A DNA stretch of 64,000 nt from Verrucomicrobiia bacterium (lineage in GTDB: Bacteria; Verrucomicrobiota; Verrucomicrobiia; Limisphaerales; UBA1319): assembly GCA_963664225.1 (NCBI GenBank), contig OY760937.1, positions 896,001 through 960,000 of the forward strand. The letters are read 5' to 3'. A program made the translations under genes and the position numbers. The stretch's first letter is position 1. The number at the start of each line of letters is the position of its first letter. The notes beneath the pieces were generated by a model. That model was not told where the DNA came from, searched no databases, and saw only the letters and a list, made by a program, of their open reading frames with translations. Positions 1,085 to 58,292 of this stretch are shown here, piece after piece.

Positions 1085-4000
1085 TCACGGTTTTTCGAGC
1101 CGGAAATACTCCTGCGGCAGGCCGTTGGTGGGTAGAAGGATGCGGCGCATGCCGTTGCTGGTGATGATTTCGGTTTGCACCGGCTGCCAGGATACCGGCG
1201 GGACGAGGTTTGTCGCGGATTTCAATTGGCAATCTCCCAACGCTTCCGGCCAGGCCAGCGTCCACTGTCCCTGAACCGCTTCCATGCCCAGGATCAAGGG
1301 ATGAGGCATTACCTGAAAAGTGCGCTCGACCGGAGCGGCGGCGGCAGTGACAGAGTTGCCTTCCTGGGTCGCCCGGACTGTGATGGTCCCGAGATTGGTC
1401 CAGGTGAACAGGTTGCTAATGACTGTGGCTGGCCCGCTGACCAGGGTGAAGGTCACCGGCAAGCCGCTAGTGGAGGTGGCCTGTAACGCGATTGATCCAT
1501 CGGTGCCATGCTGGTTGGTAACGGCGTCGAAGGTAATGGTTTGAGGGAACCAAATCTCGGAGGGAAAGATCATCAGGCCGTTGGTGCCGGAGGCGACATA
1601 GACATAATTGCCCGCCACAGTGACGTCCTGGGCCTGACCGCCGGTGTCATAACCACCCACGCGTTGCGGAGCGGTCGGGCTGCTGACGTCGATGATTTGC
1701 AAACCATTAGTGTCTTCCGCGATATAGGCATAATTGCCAGACACGGCAACACCCGAAACAATGCTGCTGGTGTTGTATGTGCCCACAAGCGTAAGACTGG
1801 CCGGATTGCGGATATCGACGATCTTGAGGCCGCCGTGGGCGTTCGCCAAATAGATATAGTTCCCATGCAGGGCAAAATTCGAAATCATAAGGCCCGCAGA
1901 ATATCCACCGGGAACTGATACAGGCATGAATGGATTGGTAATGTCCATTGCATATAGAGTGTTGGGCGACAAGCTGCATTCAAAGGCGTAATGCCCGGAC
2001 ACAGCGACGCGCCTGCCATTATACGTTGTTGGATTAACTTTGCTTGCGAGCTTCGGTGCGGCTGGATTTCGAATGTCGATTACGAGCAGCGGACCTGTTG
2101 GAGGTAAATAAAAGCCATACGCCACATAGGCATAATTTCCGACCACCGTAACATCATTGAGGGAGTTATTTGTGGAAGTATAGGTACCCACGACCTGAAG
2201 CGTGCTTGGATCGTGTGCATCGATGATCTTTAGAACGTCGCGTCCATCCACCAAATACAAATAGTTTCCAGCTACTGCAAGGCGCTGAGACTGGCCGGTT
2301 GTGGCAATTCCACCCACACGCACCGGCGCGGCGGGTTTGTGAATGTCCAGGACAACGAGACCCGCCTTTCCCGCGCCCACATAGGCATAATCTCCAGACA
2401 CCACCACCGATTGTGCGGAACCTAGTCCCACGTCCTTCCATGCACCCACCTGACCCAAACGGGCGGTGGTGTCGAACAACACTTGGTATAAAGTTTCGGG
2501 ATCATAGACGCCGTTGCCCGGTTGTTCCGCCCGAACGGTGACTGGCCCTGAATTGGTCAGCAACAACGAACCATTCTCGATTGTCGCCGGGCCGTTGACC
2601 ACTTCAATAAGCACGGGCAAACCGGCGCTGGAGTGGGCGGATATGGGCAGAGGTTGATTCAATATCGGTGCGCTGGGCAGGATATCGAATGCGAGCCTCT
2701 GCGTGAGCATGCGGACTTGAAAGCTGCGTTCGACCGGCGCGGCGGCGGCATAGATGTCGTTGCCAGCCTGAGTCGCCATGACTGTGATGGTTCCGGTGTT
2801 GGTCCAGGTGAGAATGTTGTTTGAAATGGTCGCTGGTCCGCTGACCAGGGTCAAGGTCACCGGCAAGCCGCTGGTGGCGGTCGCTTCCAAGACGACGGGG
2901 GCATTTGAGATGATCTGGTCGGCAATGGCGTTGAAGGTCAGGGTTTGGAAGGTTCGTATATCGGATTTAAGGATGTGCAAACCCTGGTTGGCCTCCGTCA
3001 TATACAAATAGCCATTTGTTCCAACAAGCCCCACAGCCACTCCACTTCCAAAACCGCCAAGGCTTACGGGCGTCATTGGGTTGCTGATGTCGATCACCTG
3101 CACCCCATTTGTGCCGTTCGCGATATAGGCGCGATTGCCGGAGACGGAAACGCCAGTGATGGAATTGGTGGTGACATAGCCGCCGGTGAATGCTGGGGCC
3201 ACGGGGTTGGCGATGTCGATGATTTGAAGGCCATTTGTGCCATCCGCCACATAAGCATAATGGTCTGCCACTGCGAGATCGTAAGCGGTGCCGGGAGTGC
3301 CCAATCCACCCACCACTTGAAGCGCGGTGCGATCGCTGACGTCGATGATTTGCAAACCGTTTGTGCCATCGGCCACATAAGCATAATGGCCTGCGACAGC
3401 GACATTGTAAGCGGTTCCGGGGGTATCCAATCCGCCCACACGGAGCGGGGTGGTGGGGTCGCTGATGTCGATGATCTGGAATCCAGAGTCACCGTCAGCC
3501 ACATACGCATCTGTGCCCGCCACGCAAACGCGTCTGGCATCGCCGGGGGTATCCAATCCGCCGATACGAATCGGAGCGGATGGAATACTGATATCAATGA
3601 TCTGCAATCCGGCGGAGCCATCGGCGACATAGGCATTACTACCGTTCACGGCAACATCCCGCGCGGTCCCACTGGTGTCATAACTGCCGACAAGCTTGGG
3701 CGCGTCCGGGTTGGTGATATCGACTGCCTGCAATCCGGCTGCACCTTCCGCCAAAAAGACCATGTTTGTTCCAATGGCCATGCCACCGGCTGATCTGACG
3801 GTCGCGTACCCACCCGCGTGTTGGGGTGATTTCGGATTGCTGATGTCCACCACTTCCAGACCGCCATTGTCCAATGCGATAAAAGAGTACCCCCCCGACA
3901 CCGCAGTCCCTTGAGCGTATCCAAGTGTCTTATAGCCGCCGGAAAGCGTAGGGGCAGTCGGATCGGTGATGTCAATAATTTTAAGCCCCAAGTCACTACA

Positions 4001-52159: not shown

Positions 52160-54103
52160 TTACCGGCCTCCGGCCCAATTGATCGCGTTGCGAAAGATGG
52201 TGGTGAACGACTTGTTCTCGAACAGGTCGGGGCCGTGGCCCATGAAGATATACAGGTTCCGGGCGGTCATGTGGTCATTCGTCCAGATCACCGGATGGTC
52301 CCCCATTTTGATATCGGACGATGGAGAGTACGAGGATTCGTCCACGCTGGCCAGCACGTGGACGTTCGGGCGCGGACTTTTGTCGTAGGTGTACCATTCC
52401 TCCCTGGGGATGACGAACGATTCGGGAACGTCCTTCATGCAGGGATGATTCCTGGCCTCCACGCGGACGGTCCCGGCGGCGAACTTCGGGATGTAGTTTT
52501 TGAATTTGATCCCACCCATGAAATCCGAAAACCAGGGCCACATGGGATAGCCGTCGAATTCACCCAGCAGCGTGGCGTGATGAAAGCCGATCCATCCGCC
52601 TTTGCCTTTTTCAATGTAGGACTTGAAGGCGGCCATTGCATCGGGTTTCCAGGTGTATGGAGGAAAATTGAGCTGGATGATGAGTTGGTAGTTCTCGAGC
52701 AACACCGAATTGATGGTGTCTGTGTTGGTGATGTAATCGACTTCAAATCCATCCGCCTGGCCACGTTCCTTGAGCCAGATTTTGGCGGCTTCGACGAAAG
52801 GCCCGTGCTGGCCTCCGGTTTCCGTAAGGATCAAGGCTTTGAGTTTTTGGGATCCAGCCAGGGGCTTCGAGTCAGGAGCTAACAGAGACTGAACAACGTT
52901 GGTGTTAACCCGGCAGTTCCCGGCCTTGAGATTCTCGACCAACTCGAACAATCCCTTGCTGGCAACCTCTTTCGAAGGCCGTTCGCCGGTTTTGTTCCAG
53001 AAATCGACGACTTTTTTGAAATCATCCGGTCGCGTGGCGGTCATGATACTGGTGCCCGAGCTGACTTTTTTGTAGGGCCACCAAGCCCAGCCAATGTGAT
53101 TCTTTTCAACGAGTCTGACGCACTCGCTGAACCATTGGGTGGTATTTTCACCGCTTTCCCCGAGCCAGAGGGGCATGTGGAACTTCTCGCGGAGATCGAG
53201 GAAGTGCGCGATGGCTGCCTGCGTATTCGGATTCCAGTATTTGTGGAAGCTCATCACCATGTTATCGTCCCATGGCCCGGGAAAACCGTTGTAATTATTT
53301 CCCCAGGCGTTGCCCTCAACGATGATGATGTGGTTGGTATCCACACTTCGAATGGCCTTTGTGATGGCCTGGTAGATTTCCCAAATGGGTTGGTTGGTGG
53401 CATCCTGTCTGCCGTTCTTGTCCTTGCCTTCAAAGGTCCAGTTGGGTTCGTTCAGCAAATCATAACCGCCAATCCATGGCTCGTTGGCATATCGCTCGGC
53501 CAGCTTATGCCATAGGGCAACGGTCTTCTGCTGGTTTTCGGCGCTTTCCCACAGGGAAGGTTTTGCCGGATCGTAATCAGAAATGTTGCCATCCTTGCCT
53601 TGACCCCCGGGAGAGGCATGCAGGTCCAGAATCAAATACATTTTGTTCGCCTTGCACCAGGCCAGGAGATTGTCGGTGAGAGTGAAACCATTGGTCAGCC
53701 AGGTGTTCTGTCCTTTAACCGGTTCGTTCTCCATGGGGAGGGTGAAGAGATTGTAGTGCATCGGCAGGCGGATGCTGTTGAAACCGGATTTCGCCAGAAG
53801 ATCGACATCCGGACGGGCCATGTGGTTTTGGAGCCAGAGCTGATAGAACCGGTCGCATTCCTCCCGGCCCACCAGATCGGTGATTCGTGCCTTGATGAGG
53901 TGCTGCATTCCTTCGTTTCTGATGCCGAGCATGTAGCCCTCCTGGAGCATCCAGCCGCCAAGCCCCATGCCACGCAGGATGACCTCCTTGCCCTGACCGT
54001 CCACAACTCGCGAATCTATGGCCCTGAGAAATCCGGCATCCTGGGCCTGGGACGTCGCCAGCAGGGATGCAAACAAAAAAAGCGAGACGGCGAATGAATT
54101 CAT
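52160..54103 (-). CDS. Secreted GH5 (cellulase-type) fused to a C-terminal ThuA domain
   Basis: LRGMGLGGWM.QEGYM, GFNSIRLP, ILDLHA.PGGQ, YDLLNEP, SFHKY, LWLGESGEN, WAWW; then GWIGFHHA...EEWY...MGHG. Confidence 0.88.
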   Translation of the reverse strand: MNSFAVSLFLFASLLATSQAQDAGFLRAIDSRVVDGQGKEVILRGMGLGGWMLQEGYMLGIRNEGMQHLIKARITDLVGREECDRFYQLWLQNHMARPDVDLLAKSGFNSIRLPMHYNLFTLPMENEPVKGQNTWLTNGFTLTDNLLAWCKANKMYLILDLHASPGGQGKDGNISDYDPAKPSLWESAENQQKTVALWHKLAERYANEPWIGGYDLLNEPNWTFEGKDKNGRQDATNQPIWEIYQAITKAIRSVDTNHIIIVEGNAWGNNYNGFPGPWDDNMVMSFHKYWNPNTQAAIAHFLDLREKFHMPLWLGESGENTTQWFSECVRLVEKNHIGWAWWPYKKVSSGTSIMTATRPDDFKKVVDFWNKTGERPSKEVASKGLFELVENLKAGNCRVNTNVVQSLLAPDSKPLAGSQKLKALILTETGGQHGPFVEAAKIWLKERGQADGFEVDYITNTDTINSVLLENYQLIIQLNFPPYTWKPDAMAAFKSYIEKGKGGWIGFHHATLLGEFDGYPMWPWFSDFMGGIKFKNYIPKFAAGTVRVEARNHPCMKDVPESFVIPREEWYTYDKSPRPNVHVLASVDESSYSPSSDIKMGDHPVIWTNDHMTARNLYIFMGHGPDLFENKSFTTIFRNAINWAGGR

Positions 54104-54318
54104 AAAGACACGTTTACTTGATTGCGCTTCCAGCATTCAAGCTTGAAAAGTCTCGTGCTCATAGCTGGTTTCGGTCGATTCGTTGCCGCTTCGGCACTTT
54201 GTGACGTGAGATCGTTCATGCTAAATATCCTCGTCATCGAAAAACGCAGGTGTCCGAACGCCCATGAAAATGCCGATTCACATTGAGTCAAATTGGGGCG
54301 GGCTTCGCCGCTGGTTAA

Positions 54319-54482
54319 ACCCGAAATCCGAAATAGGAACGGCCCATCTGACGCAACCATTTGGCCATCCATGGTTTGAAACCGGCTGTGGATTATTGAT
54401 TTAATACACCCTCGCCGATTGCAAATCATGGCTGCCTCAAAGCATTGCATCATCTTGACCCTTCTTATTTCGGATTTCGGGT
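54319..54482. mobile_element. 164-bp fold-back MITE-like element with 17-bp perfect TIRs and TAA direct repeats
   Basis: ACCCGAAATCCGAAATA (54319-54335) / TATTTCGGATTTCGGGT (54466-54482). The arms stay complementary up to the centre (about 60 of 81 positions by hand alignment). TAA lies at 54316-54318 and, once the intron is removed, immediately after (56458-56460). Confidence 0.7.
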
Positions 54483-56457
54483 GTGCGCCAGTGAAATTGG
54501 TAGCCTCGTGGGTGAAAGTCCCGCCGGTCGAATTAGACGGTTCACGACCGAAATGCAGCGTCCGGGACGAGGCCGTGAGGCCGAACCACAAGCGGGACGC
54601 TGAAAGAACTGTCGGGTCGTAACGAAAGTAAACCTCATCAAATGAGCTCCGAAACCGAAATAACCGGTAAGCCGAGCCGCTACCCGAACGGCGAAGGCAG
54701 AAACGCGGCGTCATCAAATCGTCAAATGGGCGCTGTTGATTCCGGCGGAGTCAGCGAGGGCGACACGACAGGAAGGGAAACCAAGGTAAGCTGGGAGATC
54801 TCTGGAGGCGGGGCGATAAAGCCTCAACCGCCGGTGCAAGGAGGAACACCCTCCGAGGCCGCACGGGCAGCCAGAGAAGTCGGAGTCTTCCATAGTAGCG
54901 AAGAAGCTGGGGCGACCAAAACCCCGGCGGAGCCAAGGGAAGGCACTTGGATCGAAGCGAATCAAAACAGCGAGGGACAGGGAGATGGCCTTGAGGGAGT
55001 GGAAACACTTTTTCAACGGATAACAACCCCGATAAAAGTTCAAAAGCTGCAGCGAGCGCTATATTGCAAAGCCAAGGCTGAGCCGAAGTATCGGTTTTAC
55101 AGCCTCTACGGAGAACTGCTGCGGAAGGACGTGCTGGAAACGGCAATGGCCTCCGTGGCGCACAACAATGGCGCGGCTGGGATCGACGGGCAGACATGCG
55201 ACGTCTATCTTGCCAGCGACGAAGCCTGGGACCAATGGCGGAACCAACTGCTGGAGGAGTTACGCACGAAGAAGTATCGGCCAAGCCCGGTGAAGCGTGT
55301 GTATATACCAAAAGGAGACGGGAAGCTGCGACCCCTGGGCATCCCGACAGTGAAAGACCGGGTGGTGCAGACAGCGGTGGTGATTGTATTGCTGCCGATT
55401 CTGGAAGCCGATAGTCATCCGAACAGTTACGCCTATCATCCCAAACGCAATGCCCACCAAGCAATGGAGGCGATCAAGAAGGCTACGCTGACAGGACGCG
55501 TCGAAGTTATAGACGCGGACTTAAGCGGGTATTTTGACAGCATTCCCCACAGGCGTTTGTTGCGCATAGTGGCCAAGCGGGTCAGCGATGGAACAATTCT
55601 CAAGCTGATCGCAGGATGGCTGCGCGCGCCCGTGAATGAACCGCAAAGCGACACAGGGAAAGGCGGGACAAAGGGGGGGCAAGGTCAGAATCGACGGGGG
55701 ACTCCGCAAGGCGGGGTTGTATCGCCGATTTTAGCCAATGCATACCTCAACCAGTTGGATTGGGAAGTCAACGAACGCTGCGAACTCAAACCCGTGATGG
55801 TGAGATACGCGGATGATTTCGTGATACTCGGACAGCCGGGGCAGGGACGGGAACTGATGGAACGACTGGAACGATGGCTGAAGCAACGCGAGTTAGTGCT
55901 CAACGAGAAGAAGACCCGCTTGGTGGACCTCCGCCAGGATGGCATCAAATTCTTGGGATTCGCGCTAACAATGCGACAGGGGAAGGGGAAATGGAAATAT
56001 CCGCATGTGGAACCCCATCCCAAGAGCCAGAAGAAGTTTCGAGACGGGATTCGGGAGAAACTCAACCGAAGCACGCTATGGCGTGATATCGGAGAGGTGA
56101 TTCCCGAGCTCAACAAGAAACTCAAAGGTTGGAAGGGTTACTTTCACTACGGGAACAGCACCAAGGTGATGGGCCAGATGAACGAATACGTCAGCAGCAA
56201 GTTACAACGATGGTTGTGGCGCAAACACGGATGTAGTCGGGCGCAATGGTCCACATACCCCAAGGAGGATCTCTATGAGCGTTATGGTTTATACCAAATG
56301 CCGGAATATGCGGCATGGAAACGATGACGTCGAAGCGATGCAACGTATGATCCCCGGAGAGCCGGATGCGGGAAAACCGCCTGTCCGGTTCGATGAGGGG
56401 CGAAATGCGACGGTCATTGGCCACGGCCATTCAATCCGTCCATTTCGCCTACTCTAC
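54483..56457 (+). mobile_element. Group II intron (IIB-type, bacterial class F-like), apparently complete
   Basis: 5' GTGCG; domain V GAGCCGGATGCGGGAAAACCGCCTGTCCGGTTC (AGC triad, from 56359); domain VI GGGCGAAATG...CATTTCGCCT-A-CTC with bulged A56451; 3' end CTAC. EBS1 ACCCGAA (54682-54688) pairs with exon TTCGGGT. Confidence 0.93.
54999..56327 (+). CDS. ltrA: Group II intron reverse transcriptase/maturase, no endonuclease domain
   Basis: RT0 KVQKLQRALYCKAK, GAAGIDG, RPLGIPTVKDRVVQ, DADLSGYFDSIPH, GTPQGGVVSPILAN, RYADDF, FLGF, X domain LNKKLKGWKGYF. The frame is open from 54642, but the real start is probably near GTG 54999. Confidence 0.95.
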   Translation: METLFQRITTPIKVQKLQRALYCKAKAEPKYRFYSLYGELLRKDVLETAMASVAHNNGAAGIDGQTCDVYLASDEAWDQWRNQLLEELRTKKYRPSPVKRVYIPKGDGKLRPLGIPTVKDRVVQTAVVIVLLPILEADSHPNSYAYHPKRNAHQAMEAIKKATLTGRVEVIDADLSGYFDSIPHRRLLRIVAKRVSDGTILKLIAGWLRAPVNEPQSDTGKGGTKGGQGQNRRGTPQGGVVSPILANAYLNQLDWEVNERCELKPVMVRYADDFVILGQPGQGRELMERLERWLKQRELVLNEKKTRLVDLRQDGIKFLGFALTMRQGKGKWKYPHVEPHPKSQKKFRDGIREKLNRSTLWRDIGEVIPELNKKLKGWKGYFHYGNSTKVMGQMNEYVSSKLQRWLWRKHGCSRAQWSTYPKEDLYERYGLYQMPEYAAWKR

Positions 56458-56537
56458 TAAATTGTGCTACTTATTGGCCAGATGGTTAAGGATTCAGCGG
56501 TCGCACTCTCTTATGATCTGCGCATTCAATTCGATTT

Positions 56538-58292
56538 ATGAAAACGACCGCCAGACTGACCGTTCTTGCCGCCGCGTTTGCGACGCTTTTGGCCTACGCC
56601 GCACCGCCAGGACTTGAAACAGCGGAACCTTCGCCGCTCTCGACTTTCTTCATCAATCCGACGCGGGTCGTGTGGCAAAGCGATGCTGGCGCGAAAAACG
56701 CCGGTTCCCTGTTAAAACCGCACGCCGGTCAGGCTGTGCTCAAGGAGCCGCAGCCCCCCTGTGTATTGAACGCCAGTTCCAATTCGTCCGCCGGTGTGTT
56801 GCTGGATTTCGGCAGGGAGCTACATGGTTATGTCGAATTGATCACGCCCATGATGTCTGAACAGGGCAAGCTGCGCCACGTGCGGATTCGTTTCGGTGAA
56901 TCCGTGAGCGAGGCCATGTCGGAGATCGGTGGCAAACAGAACGCCCAGAACGACCACGCCATACGGGATCAAGTGGTAACGCTGCCCTGGTTGGGCAAAA
57001 AGATGGTCGGCCCCAGTGGATTCCGGTTTGTGCGGATTGATAATCTGGACCCGCAACTCTCCGTGGAGCTCAGCCAGGTCCGTGCCGTGCTCCAGATTCG
57101 CGACATCCCACAGGTGGGTTCTTTCAAATGCGACGACGAACGGTTGAACCACATCTGGCAGGTTGGCGCCTACACAGCCCATCTCAACATGCAGGAATAT
57201 CTCTGGGACGGCATCAAGCGCGACCGGCTGGTGTGGATTGGGGACATGTATCCCGAAGTCAACACCATCGACGCCGTATTCGGTTTCAACGAAGTGGTGC
57301 CCCGCTCGCTCGATTTGACCCGGGAAGTCACCCCGGTGACCGAATGGATGAACGGCATTTCCAGCTATTCCATGTGGTGGGTGCTCATCCATGAGGATTT
57401 GTGGATGCACAACGGCAACCGCAAATATTTGGAGGAGCAAAAACCGTATCTCACCGCATTGCTCAAACGACTTGCGGCACTGATCGGACCGGACGGGAAA
57501 GAGCACATCGACGGCATGCGCTTTCTCGACTGGCCCAGTTCGCCCAACCAACAGGGTGTGACTGCCGGTTTGCAGGGATTGCTCGTGATGACACTGGAGA
57601 GCGGCGCGCGAATGATGACCACGCTTGGCGATGCAGTGACCGCAAAAGTCTGCACCGAAGCGGCTGATCGCGGACGCAAGGTCGTTCCCGATGTGAACAA
57701 GTCCAAGTCCGGCGCTGCGTTGCTTTCACTGGCCGGAATGATGGATGCGAAGCAAACCTCCGACACCGTGCTCAAAGTGGGCGGGGCAAAGGATATTTCC
57801 ACCTTTTACGGATTCTATGTCCTTCAGGCATTGGCAAAATCCGGCGACACCGATACCGCGCTGGATTTCGTTCGCACCTATTGGGGCGCGATGATCGATT
57901 TTGGCGCCACGACCTTTTGGGAGGATTTCAACCTGGAGTGGACCAACAACGCAGGGCGCATTGACGAGTTGGTGCCTGCGGGCAAGAAGGATATTCACGG
58001 CGATTACGGAGCCTATTGTTACATCGGATTTAGACACAGCCTGTGCCACGGTTGGGCGAGTGGTCCCACCGCGTGGCTGAGCCAGACGGTGCTTGGAGTG
58101 AAGCCGCTCGAACCGGGCTGCAAACGGGTGCGCATCGCGCCGCAATTGGGCAATTTGAAATGGGTTGAGGGAACGTATCCGACACCCCTTGGTCCGATTC
58201 ACGTCCGCCATGAACGGAAATCGGACGGCACCATCGCCTCGAAAATCGAAGCCCCAGCCGGTATTCAGGTCGATTCCGCAACCAATCTATAA
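56538..58292 (+). CDS. GH78 alpha-L-rhamnosidase (short form)
   Basis: Signal peptide; LLDFGRE, GFRFV, WDGIKRDRLVWIGD, GATTFWE, SLCHGWASGP, PTPLGPI. Confidence 0.92.
   Translation: MKTTARLTVLAAAFATLLAYAAPPGLETAEPSPLSTFFINPTRVVWQSDAGAKNAGSLLKPHAGQAVLKEPQPPCVLNASSNSSAGVLLDFGRELHGYVELITPMMSEQGKLRHVRIRFGESVSEAMSEIGGKQNAQNDHAIRDQVVTLPWLGKKMVGPSGFRFVRIDNLDPQLSVELSQVRAVLQIRDIPQVGSFKCDDERLNHIWQVGAYTAHLNMQEYLWDGIKRDRLVWIGDMYPEVNTIDAVFGFNEVVPRSLDLTREVTPVTEWMNGISSYSMWWVLIHEDLWMHNGNRKYLEEQKPYLTALLKRLAALIGPDGKEHIDGMRFLDWPSSPNQQGVTAGLQGLLVMTLESGARMMTTLGDAVTAKVCTEAADRGRKVVPDVNKSKSGAALLSLAGMMDAKQTSDTVLKVGGAKDISTFYGFYVLQALAKSGDTDTALDFVRTYWGAMIDFGATTFWEDFNLEWTNNAGRIDELVPAGKKDIHGDYGAYCYIGFRHSLCHGWASGPTAWLSQTVLGVKPLEPGCKRVRIAPQLGNLKWVEGTYPTPLGPIHVRHERKSDGTIASKIEAPAGIQVDSATNL

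Follow-up and report, generated by a model that had tools for sequence, protein, structure and literature searches.

A 64-kb window of a Verrucomicrobiia bacterium genome (C1:896001-960000 of a single-contig 5.78-Mb genome) carries a complete 1975-bp group II intron next to a 162-bp palindromic miniature inverted-repeat transposable element (MITE). We propose that this intron, which lacks an endonuclease domain, very probably retrohomes by RNA-DNA pairing into the junction formed wherever the MITE or an insertion sequence (IS) of the IS1380 family inserts. The anatomy of the intron, the table of its copies, the covariation between its guide sequence and the insertion sites of its relatives, and the strand pattern of its copies along the chromosome all point to this reading, under which the intron would reverse-splice into DNA, have its cDNA primed at replication forks and be active at present. 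The original prediction, made from the letters of the window alone, had described an intron adapted to home into the terminal inverted repeat of a palindromic MITE. The observation was confirmed and its interpretation is supported with three corrections: the junction is found one base beyond the end of the element, the target is a tip shared by the IS and the MITE, and each element offers one usable site, set by the direction of replication.

Nineteen identical intron copies follow the same transposon tip

A BLAST search of the genome recovered 19 full-length copies of the intron, which show 100% identity along their 1975 bp. Each of them follows the 5′ exon core TCGGA[T/G]TTCGGGT, in which the variable base is T in 15 copies and G in 4, and the 3′ exon starts with TAAA (10/19) or TTAA (9/19). 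The presence of the same 13-nt core at 19/19 identical copies is not due to chance. When read further upstream, the 5′ exons are of six kinds: the right end of the MITE (8 copies), its left end read on the other strand (5), IS end B (3), IS end A (1) and solitary tips (2). The intron is thus multicopy and all of its 5′ exons end in the same tip, which is what the original prediction had proposed to check. The suggestion that a multicopy MITE serves as landing pad holds in that the MITE is multicopy and is used at 13 of the 19 sites, but the target is not specific to it, as 4/19 copies lie at IS ends and 2/19 at solitary tips. The target is the 12-nt tip common to the IS1380-family IS and its MITE, followed by the first bases of their TTWAA target duplication. 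Sites matching TCGGANTTCGGGT occur 51 times in the genome, 19 of them filled and 32 empty, and no element is filled at both ends. The empty site recognized earlier at the left end of the window's MITE, on the bottom strand, is real and equivalent to the filled one (site 950318).

Nineteen intact MITEs, 93-100% identical to that of the window, were found in the genome, 13 of which bear an intron; three more contain an insertion, which is the IS in two cases and an IS1634-family element in the third, so that the element proved multicopy as had been anticipated. The MITE folds into a single long hairpin (z = −5.8, no shuffled sequence folding equally well). The IS is 1532 bp long, is present in five identical copies flanked by 5-bp TTWAA duplications, and codes for a transposase matching NF033539 (227 bits, cut-off 180) and PF13701, which assigns it to the IS1380 family. 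Members of this family generate 4-5-bp duplications and have CC ends. MITE and IS share only the tip CCCGAA[A/C]TCCGA (12 nt) and the duplication type TTWAA. Being short, non-coding and multicopy, with the same terminal bases and the same duplication, the palindromic element has the features of a MITE of this IS and would be mobilized by the IS transposase. Since MITE copies differ by up to 7% whereas intron copies are identical, the intron must have invaded an older MITE population.

At two loci, C1:828002-831677 and C1:2984650-2988332, a MITE carries the IS within its central TTTAA. The outer flanks of the two loci differ, so the MITE::IS composite seems to have moved as a unit. The IS1634-family element (NF033559, 328.6 bits) lies inside another MITE at C1:264554-266581 (locus L004, 3783-5417), and no matching duplication was found on the left flank of that MITE.

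The intron splits the target duplication and leaves the element intact

To define the element boundaries, introns were removed by script and element ends were paired, which gave 23 pairs. Identical 5-bp flanks (TTAAA or TTTAA) were found in 19/23 pairs genome-wide; the remaining four comprise two artefactual pairs, in which a MITE end had been paired with the end of a nested IS, one 4-bp match and one pair with no match. The copy at C1:174178 is flanked by TTTAT on both sides, which assigns the base adjoining CCC to the duplication and takes it out of the terminal repeat. TTWAA, the target duplication, spans 5 bp, and the intron lies between the first and the second base of its right-hand copy, one base outside the element and facing outward, with the element intact. 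Because the duplication is split by the intron (T/TAAA or T/TTAA), the intron arrived after the element. The 164-bp element with a TAA repeat described earlier is thus corrected by one base, to 162 bp with a 5-bp duplication, and the claim that the terminal repeat is left intact is strengthened, as the intron lies altogether outside the element.

This arrangement bears on whether the intron could be a mere passenger that, instead of retrohoming itself, was spread by transposition of the MITE or IS, or by homologous recombination or gene conversion among MITEs. All three units (intron, IS and MITE) occur in several copies and next to one another, and the MITE::IS composites indicate that nested units do move together. 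Yet a position outside the terminal repeats that splits the 5-bp duplication largely refutes such a scenario, and the homology among the four end types used, only ~13 nt upstream plus 4 nt downstream, is too short to sustain homologous recombination. The two MITE::IS composites carry the intron at opposite ends of the IS, on the + strand both times. Passive spread would also leave the pairing with the target and the strand pattern described below unexplained, and we consider it very unlikely.

The order of events could also be reversed, with the IS/MITE transposase targeting DNA just upstream of resident introns. This IS family does use a defined short site, TTWAA, but the GTGCG at the intron 5′ end is not part of any TTWAA site, the right copy of the duplication is interrupted by the intron instead of lying upstream of it, and 32 of the 51 element ends have no intron at all. 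We regard this as the least credible of the alternatives weighed here.

Guide sequences of the intron match the element tip

Group II introns recognize their targets through pairing between exon-binding sites (EBS) in the intron and intron-binding sites (IBS) in the 5′ exon. In the Rfam alignment of domain I, the hairpin GCCG-CUACCCGAA-CGGC holds EBS1 in its loop, and AAACCGAAAUAA (54652-54663) is unpaired. RNAalifold, run on seven related sequences, independently predicts the same helices, with 9/26 pairs maintained through changes on both sides. EBS1 ACCCGAA, as originally proposed, therefore lies in an unpaired loop according to both methods and matches IBS1 over 7 bp. The first of the two EBS2 candidates, CCGAAAUAA, likewise stands: its internal loop is unpaired by both methods and it matches the 5′ exon over 9 bp. 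The alternative, UCCGAAA (TCCGAAA in DNA, 54648-54654), was rejected, as its first four bases lie within the GCUCCG/CGGAGU stem, where a U-A pair here is replaced by C-G in the six other sequences. The 9-bp match of EBS2 applies to the right end of the MITE; the part common to all 19 targets is only CCGA/UCGG, the shared portion of IBS2 across 19/19 5′ exons being TCGG at −13 to −10. The ligated-exon junction predicted from these boundaries would read ...TTTCGGGT/TAAATT, or in its longer form ...GGATTTCGGGT/TAAATTG.

The EBS1 loop covaries with the 5′ exon in five other introns: ACCUGAA faces UUCAGGU in L019, UCCUGAA faces UUCAGGA in L021, CCACGGAU faces AUCCGUGG in L022, GCCGUAA faces UUACGGC in a relative from another genome that lacks an open reading frame (ORF), and UCAGAGA faces UCUCUGG in a second intron family of the same genome. 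The EBS2 loop is hypervariable among relatives, and the L021 intron pairs AAUGGC with GUCGUU, in register with the EBS2-IBS2 pairing seen here. Homologous introns at sites unrelated to the terminal repeat had been named beforehand as an observation that would speak against the original prediction. Such introns do occur in other genomes, but their EBS1 loops have changed to match those sites, and targeting guided by RNA is therefore supported.

We also considered whether the intron recognizes the shape of the MITE hairpin rather than its sequence, in the way class C (IIC) introns recognize terminator or attC stem-loops. The stability of the MITE fold and the location of 13/19 copies at the foot of this hairpin would favor shape recognition. 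The other six copies, however, lie at IS ends or solitary tips with no partner arm nearby, and an EBS1 of the full 7 nt is present in the intron together with an EBS2 loop, whereas IIC introns are described as lacking part of EBS1 and all of EBS2 (PMC3753933). The EBS1 loops of relatives, moreover, covary with 5′ exons at sites that are not palindromic. Recognition of the hairpin is, in our view, even less probable than spread as a passenger.

Filled sites follow the putative direction of replication

The strand of the filled sites changes in blocks along the chromosome, with + at 0.045-0.95 Mb (5 copies), − at 1.66-2.19 Mb (6) and + at 2.99-5.61 Mb (8). For 19 labels on a circle, the probability of observing at most two runs is 6.6×10−4. 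One switch of orientation is near dnaA (2,990,062-2,991,426) and the other near 1.3-1.44 Mb, where the cumulative GC skew and 8-mer skew turn. Among long ORFs, 572/1018 are on the − strand in 1.2-3.0 Mb and 1045/1959 on the + strand in 3.6-5.78 plus 0-1.2 Mb. Three independent markers, namely dnaA, skew and the strand of long ORFs, thus fit the points at which intron orientation switches. With the putative origin placed at dnaA and the putative terminus at 1.44 Mb, 18/26 sites co-oriented with the fork are occupied compared to 1/25 anti-oriented sites (Fisher P = 1.1×10−6). The same strand bias is described as demonstrated experimentally for RmInt1, RmInt2 and Sr.md.I1 (PMC4615759). The two target sites per element that had been predicted do exist, but use is confined to the one co-oriented with replication; because replication direction sets which strand can be used, each element would offer a single usable site.

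Proposed mechanism and points that weigh against it

In the mechanism that we favor, EBS1 would pair with the last six bases of the element and the first T of TTWAA, EBS2 would pair with at least TCGG further inside the terminal repeat, and the 3′ exon would begin with the second T of the duplication. Given the lack of an endonuclease, cDNA synthesis would presumably be primed at replication forks. Each new transposition would create two new sites on opposite strands while the transposon is kept intact. The identity of the 19 copies indicates a recent burst of intron copying, by which the usable sites have been nearly filled.

Several observations weigh against this mechanism. Conservation of the tip bound by the transposase is a confounding factor for that of the 5′ exon core. 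Of the four relatives examined, only L021 shows a convincing EBS2-IBS2 pairing, that of the other three (L019, L022 and the ORF-less intron of genome G034) being weak, and EBS3 was not located. The assembled contigs of four runs show no joint that skips the intron. As for the strand pattern, one copy (5′ end 2986270, +) is located 4 kb from dnaA, on the wrong side, where direction is not assignable; both the origin and the terminus are putative, the GC and 8-mer skews being flat across 1.7-3.7 Mb; and the resulting replichores are very unequal, ~4.2 versus 1.6 Mb. Finally, two copies are preceded by only the 13-16-nt tip, without an element behind it.

These solitary-tip copies are at C1:2065436 (−) and C1:3974269 (+). 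One is located 9 nt past the stop codon of a gene coding for a 4Fe-4S ferredoxin-domain protein and the other forms a fusion with a truncated repeat of an unrelated family. A search for a partner repeat behind the two tips returned only unconvincing candidates with 3 mismatches. Since a chance 14-nt match is expected only ~0.04 times per genome, the solitary tips are probably remnants.

The GC and 8-mer skews are strong over 3.7 -> 1.3 Mb through the contig start and could not place the origin; the two rRNA operons, both on the + strand at 3.99 Mb, add little in this respect. Flat skew, the position of dnaA, intron orientation and ORF bias together suggest either very unequal replichores or a recent large rearrangement.

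A broader interpretation, which we put forward tentatively and consider possible rather than probable, is that the intron is a non-destructive parasite of transposons, whose site, made of the last 12 bases of the element and the first two T of TTWAA, is remade at each transposition. The intron, the MITE and the IS would then form a three-tier system in which the IS1380 element transcribes and carries the intron, and the orientation of the intron copies would record fork direction. Strong outward promoters, and one-ended transposition that mobilizes adjacent DNA, are among the properties reported for IS1380 members (PMC9330008). If this holds, the IS and MITE would keep jumping and supplying sites, since the intron sits outside them and faces outward; the IS could drive transcription of the intron and, on occasion, bring it to new replicons; and the 19 orientations would imply an origin near dnaA and replichores as unequal as those given above.

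Anatomy of the intron and its surroundings

The features of the locus are collected in the table below. The intron limits first proposed, 54483-56457, hold, as the sequence starts with GTGCG at 54483 and ends with CTCTAC at 56457, with the Rfam domains inside. Domain I was detected with RF02005 at 54515-54760 on the + strand (54.9 bits, cut-off 49), and the alignment to RF00029 shows a long domain VI and a domain V whose loop is 5 nt, GAAAA (GCGG-GAAAA-CCGC). Domains I and V/VI flank an ORF located in domain IV, the organization of a bacterial group II intron that encodes a reverse transcriptase/maturase, and the ribozyme without the ORF amounts to 646 nt (1975 - 1329). The start of the intron-encoded protein is taken to be GTG 54999 because relatives align from residue 2-4. 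The protein contains YADD and matches TIGR04416, the NCBI model of group II reverse transcriptases/maturases, with 357 bits (cut-off 300). Pfam found only RVT_1 (1.8×10−34) and GIIM (1×10−13), with no endonuclease domain, and the chain stops 25 residues past GIIM, which agrees with the endonuclease-minus intron of the original prediction.

Table. Features of the intron, its guide sequences and its host element. Positions are those of the 64-kb window.
Feature	Position	Strand	Basis
Left copy of the 5-bp target-site duplication, TTAAA	54315..54319		Identical 5-bp flanks after intron removal
Palindromic MITE, 162 bp (CCCGAAATCC...GGATTTCGGG)	54320..54481		19 intact genome copies; hairpin fold
IBS2 TTATTTCGG, positions −18 to −10	54465..54473	+	9-bp complement of 54655-54663
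IBS1 TTCGGGT, positions −7 to −1	54476..54482	+	Identical in 19/19 copies; 7-bp complement of EBS1
Right copy of the duplication, first base T	54482		Also last base of IBS1
Group II intron, 1975 bp, complete	54483..56457	+	Rfam RF02005 and RF00029; 19 identical genome copies
Domain I stem, 5′ strand GCUCCG	54646..54651	+	Pairs with CGGAGU at ~54742-54747, 6 pairs
EBS2 CCGAAAUAA (DNA CCGAAATAA), in unpaired internal loop 54652-54663	54655..54663	+	Rfam alignment, RNAalifold
EBS1 ACCCGAA, loop of GCCG/CGGC hairpin	54682..54688	+	Rfam alignment, RNAalifold
Intron-encoded reverse transcriptase/maturase, 442 aa, putative GTG start at 54999	54999..56327	+	Pfam, TIGR04416
Domains V and VI	56357..56457	+	RF00029 alignment, 49.3 bits (cut-off 40)
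Right copy of the duplication, bases 2-5 (TAAA), start of the 3′ exon	56458..56461		Flanks compared after intron removal

The MITE and the intron occupy a divergent intergenic region between two genes, at 52160-54136 (−) and 56538-58292 (+), whose products resemble a GH5 cellulase-ThuA fusion and an alpha-L-rhamnosidase, respectively. The alpha-L-rhamnosidase-like gene begins 81 nt past the 3′ end of the intron, which makes the intron a 2-kb insertion within the upstream region of that gene. A promoter scan returned 2 promoter-like sites where 1.5 were expected, and none inside the MITE. The intron and the MITE both occur in contigs of other runs as well, and in one run the intron unitig extends exactly from −13 to +1.

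Relatives of the intron and its place among known classes

The closest full-length relatives of the intron-encoded protein are 76-78% identical and come from four loci, in assemblies labelled with four different phyla or classes; all four introns occupy unrelated insertion sites, to which their EBS1 loops are matched. At ~40-42% identity follow the second intron family of the same genome and the Bradyrhizobium/Nitrobacter type (RF02003). A search of 40 related genomes, mostly drafts, returned only partial or distant matches to the intron, in 11/40, and none to the MITE (0/40), repeats often being unassembled in such drafts. Exact-pattern scans of metagenome contigs for the exon-intron junction and for the intron 5′ end found nothing, and narrow literature searches returned no published case in which a group II intron occupies the outer junction of an IS1380-type element.

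The second intron family has four copies, 99-100% alike, at C1:1676538, 5161417 (+), 5606092, 2331452 (−) (locus L005, 1533-3501). It belongs to RF02005 (70.4 bits) and encodes a protein 42% identical to that of the window intron. Its sites are not repeats and have the form ...UGAG-N6-8-YUGG, and at its 5′ end AAAGCGCC (or GAAAGCGCC) replaces GUGCG, which gives the 5′ splice site a non-canonical appearance. The ORF-less derivative, ~700 bp long, was found in a genome of the same order (locus L008, G034:C102, ~1306-2002, minus strand); it matches the first 508 nt of the intron at 71% identity and lies at an unrelated site, with the matching EBS1 loop given above.

Introns of the IIE/IIF type are described as having a 5-nt domain V loop and a ribozyme of 450-700 nt (Nagy et al. 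2013, PMC3753933). The loop and the ribozyme size found here agree with that description, as do the long domain VI, the presence of EBS1 and EBS2 in domain I and the lack of an endonuclease; judged by the published descriptions, IIE/IIF would be a candidate class. Another mark of these groups is an alpha-prime that caps a DId3 stem-loop. The Nitrobacter hamburgensis type has been named class F/g3 (PMC3552965). The protein of the window intron is 39.5% identical to that of an N. hamburgensis plasmid intron, which like the Bradyrhizobium relatives falls in RF02003 and not in RF02005. A tblastn search against plasmids returned only generic ltrA names.

With class C introns, the intron shares a position at the foot of a palindrome, a location in intergenic DNA and the lack of an endonuclease. 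It differs in recognizing sequence through a 7-nt EBS1 and an EBS2, and in that 6/19 of its sites lack a hairpin, so that membership in class C was rejected.

Comparison with RmInt1 and RmInt2

RmInt1 of Sinorhizobium meliloti, a class D (IIB3) intron, is like the intron described here in lacking an endonuclease and retrohoming into a multicopy IS. It is reported to home into ISRm2011-2, with IBS1 at −1 to −7, IBS2 upstream, IBS3 at +1 and a lagging-strand bias (PMC4615759, PMC5894124). It differs in having a single target site per IS, away from the terminal repeats. Class D is defined in one of these reports by the C-terminal motif LX3AX3PXLF[V/A]HW (PMC4615759). An RmInt1-type protein encoded on pSymA reads LRKLARENPGLFVHW at this motif, whereas the C-terminus of the protein studied here, ...LYERYGLYQMPEYAAWKR (translated by eye), lacks it. 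The RmInt1-type intron is detected by RF01999 (113.7 bits) and not by RF02005, and RmInt1 is 32% identical to the window intron at the protein level. Class D was rejected on these three grounds.

The closest parallel in behavior is RmInt2 from Sinorhizobium meliloti GR4, all seven copies of which are reported to lie within the inverted repeats of ISRm17 (Martinez-Rodriguez et al. 2014, PMC4615759; PMC5894124). The strategy of homing into the terminal repeats of an IS, which doubles the number of sites, is thus already published. As described in that work, RmInt2 resembles the present intron in lacking an endonuclease, in being identical among its copies in the host, in lying always at IS terminal repeats, in having two sites on opposite strands owing to the two repeats, and in a retrohoming bias toward the lagging-strand template; four EBS2/IBS2 pairs are stated to suffice for RmInt2 (PMC4615759). 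We recovered four copies of RmInt2 on pRmeGR4c, with a protein 73% identical to that of RmInt1. These four copies share ~16-17 nt upstream, preceded by unique DNA, and are followed by IS sequence of two kinds, and therefore RmInt2 reads inward and splits the repeat.

The two cases differ in geometry, in class and in host. RmInt2 lies inside the repeat, faces inward and splits it, while the intron described here lies one base past the tip, faces outward and leaves the element intact. RmInt2 belongs to class D; in the present intron the motif of that class is missing and domain I matches a different Rfam family. The host of RmInt2 is ISRm17, and here the hosts are of the IS1380 family, mostly MITEs. 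The present genome offers an unusually complete natural experiment: one chromosome with 51 equivalent sites on its two strands, of which identical copies fill 19, shows from the genome alone that an endonuclease-less intron chooses its strand by reference to replication. What this adds is an extension of a known rule and not a new rule: the strand rule, established in rhizobial class D introns, is seen here outside of them, and in a setting that spares the transposon whereas the published RmInt2/ISRm17 case splits the IS repeat.

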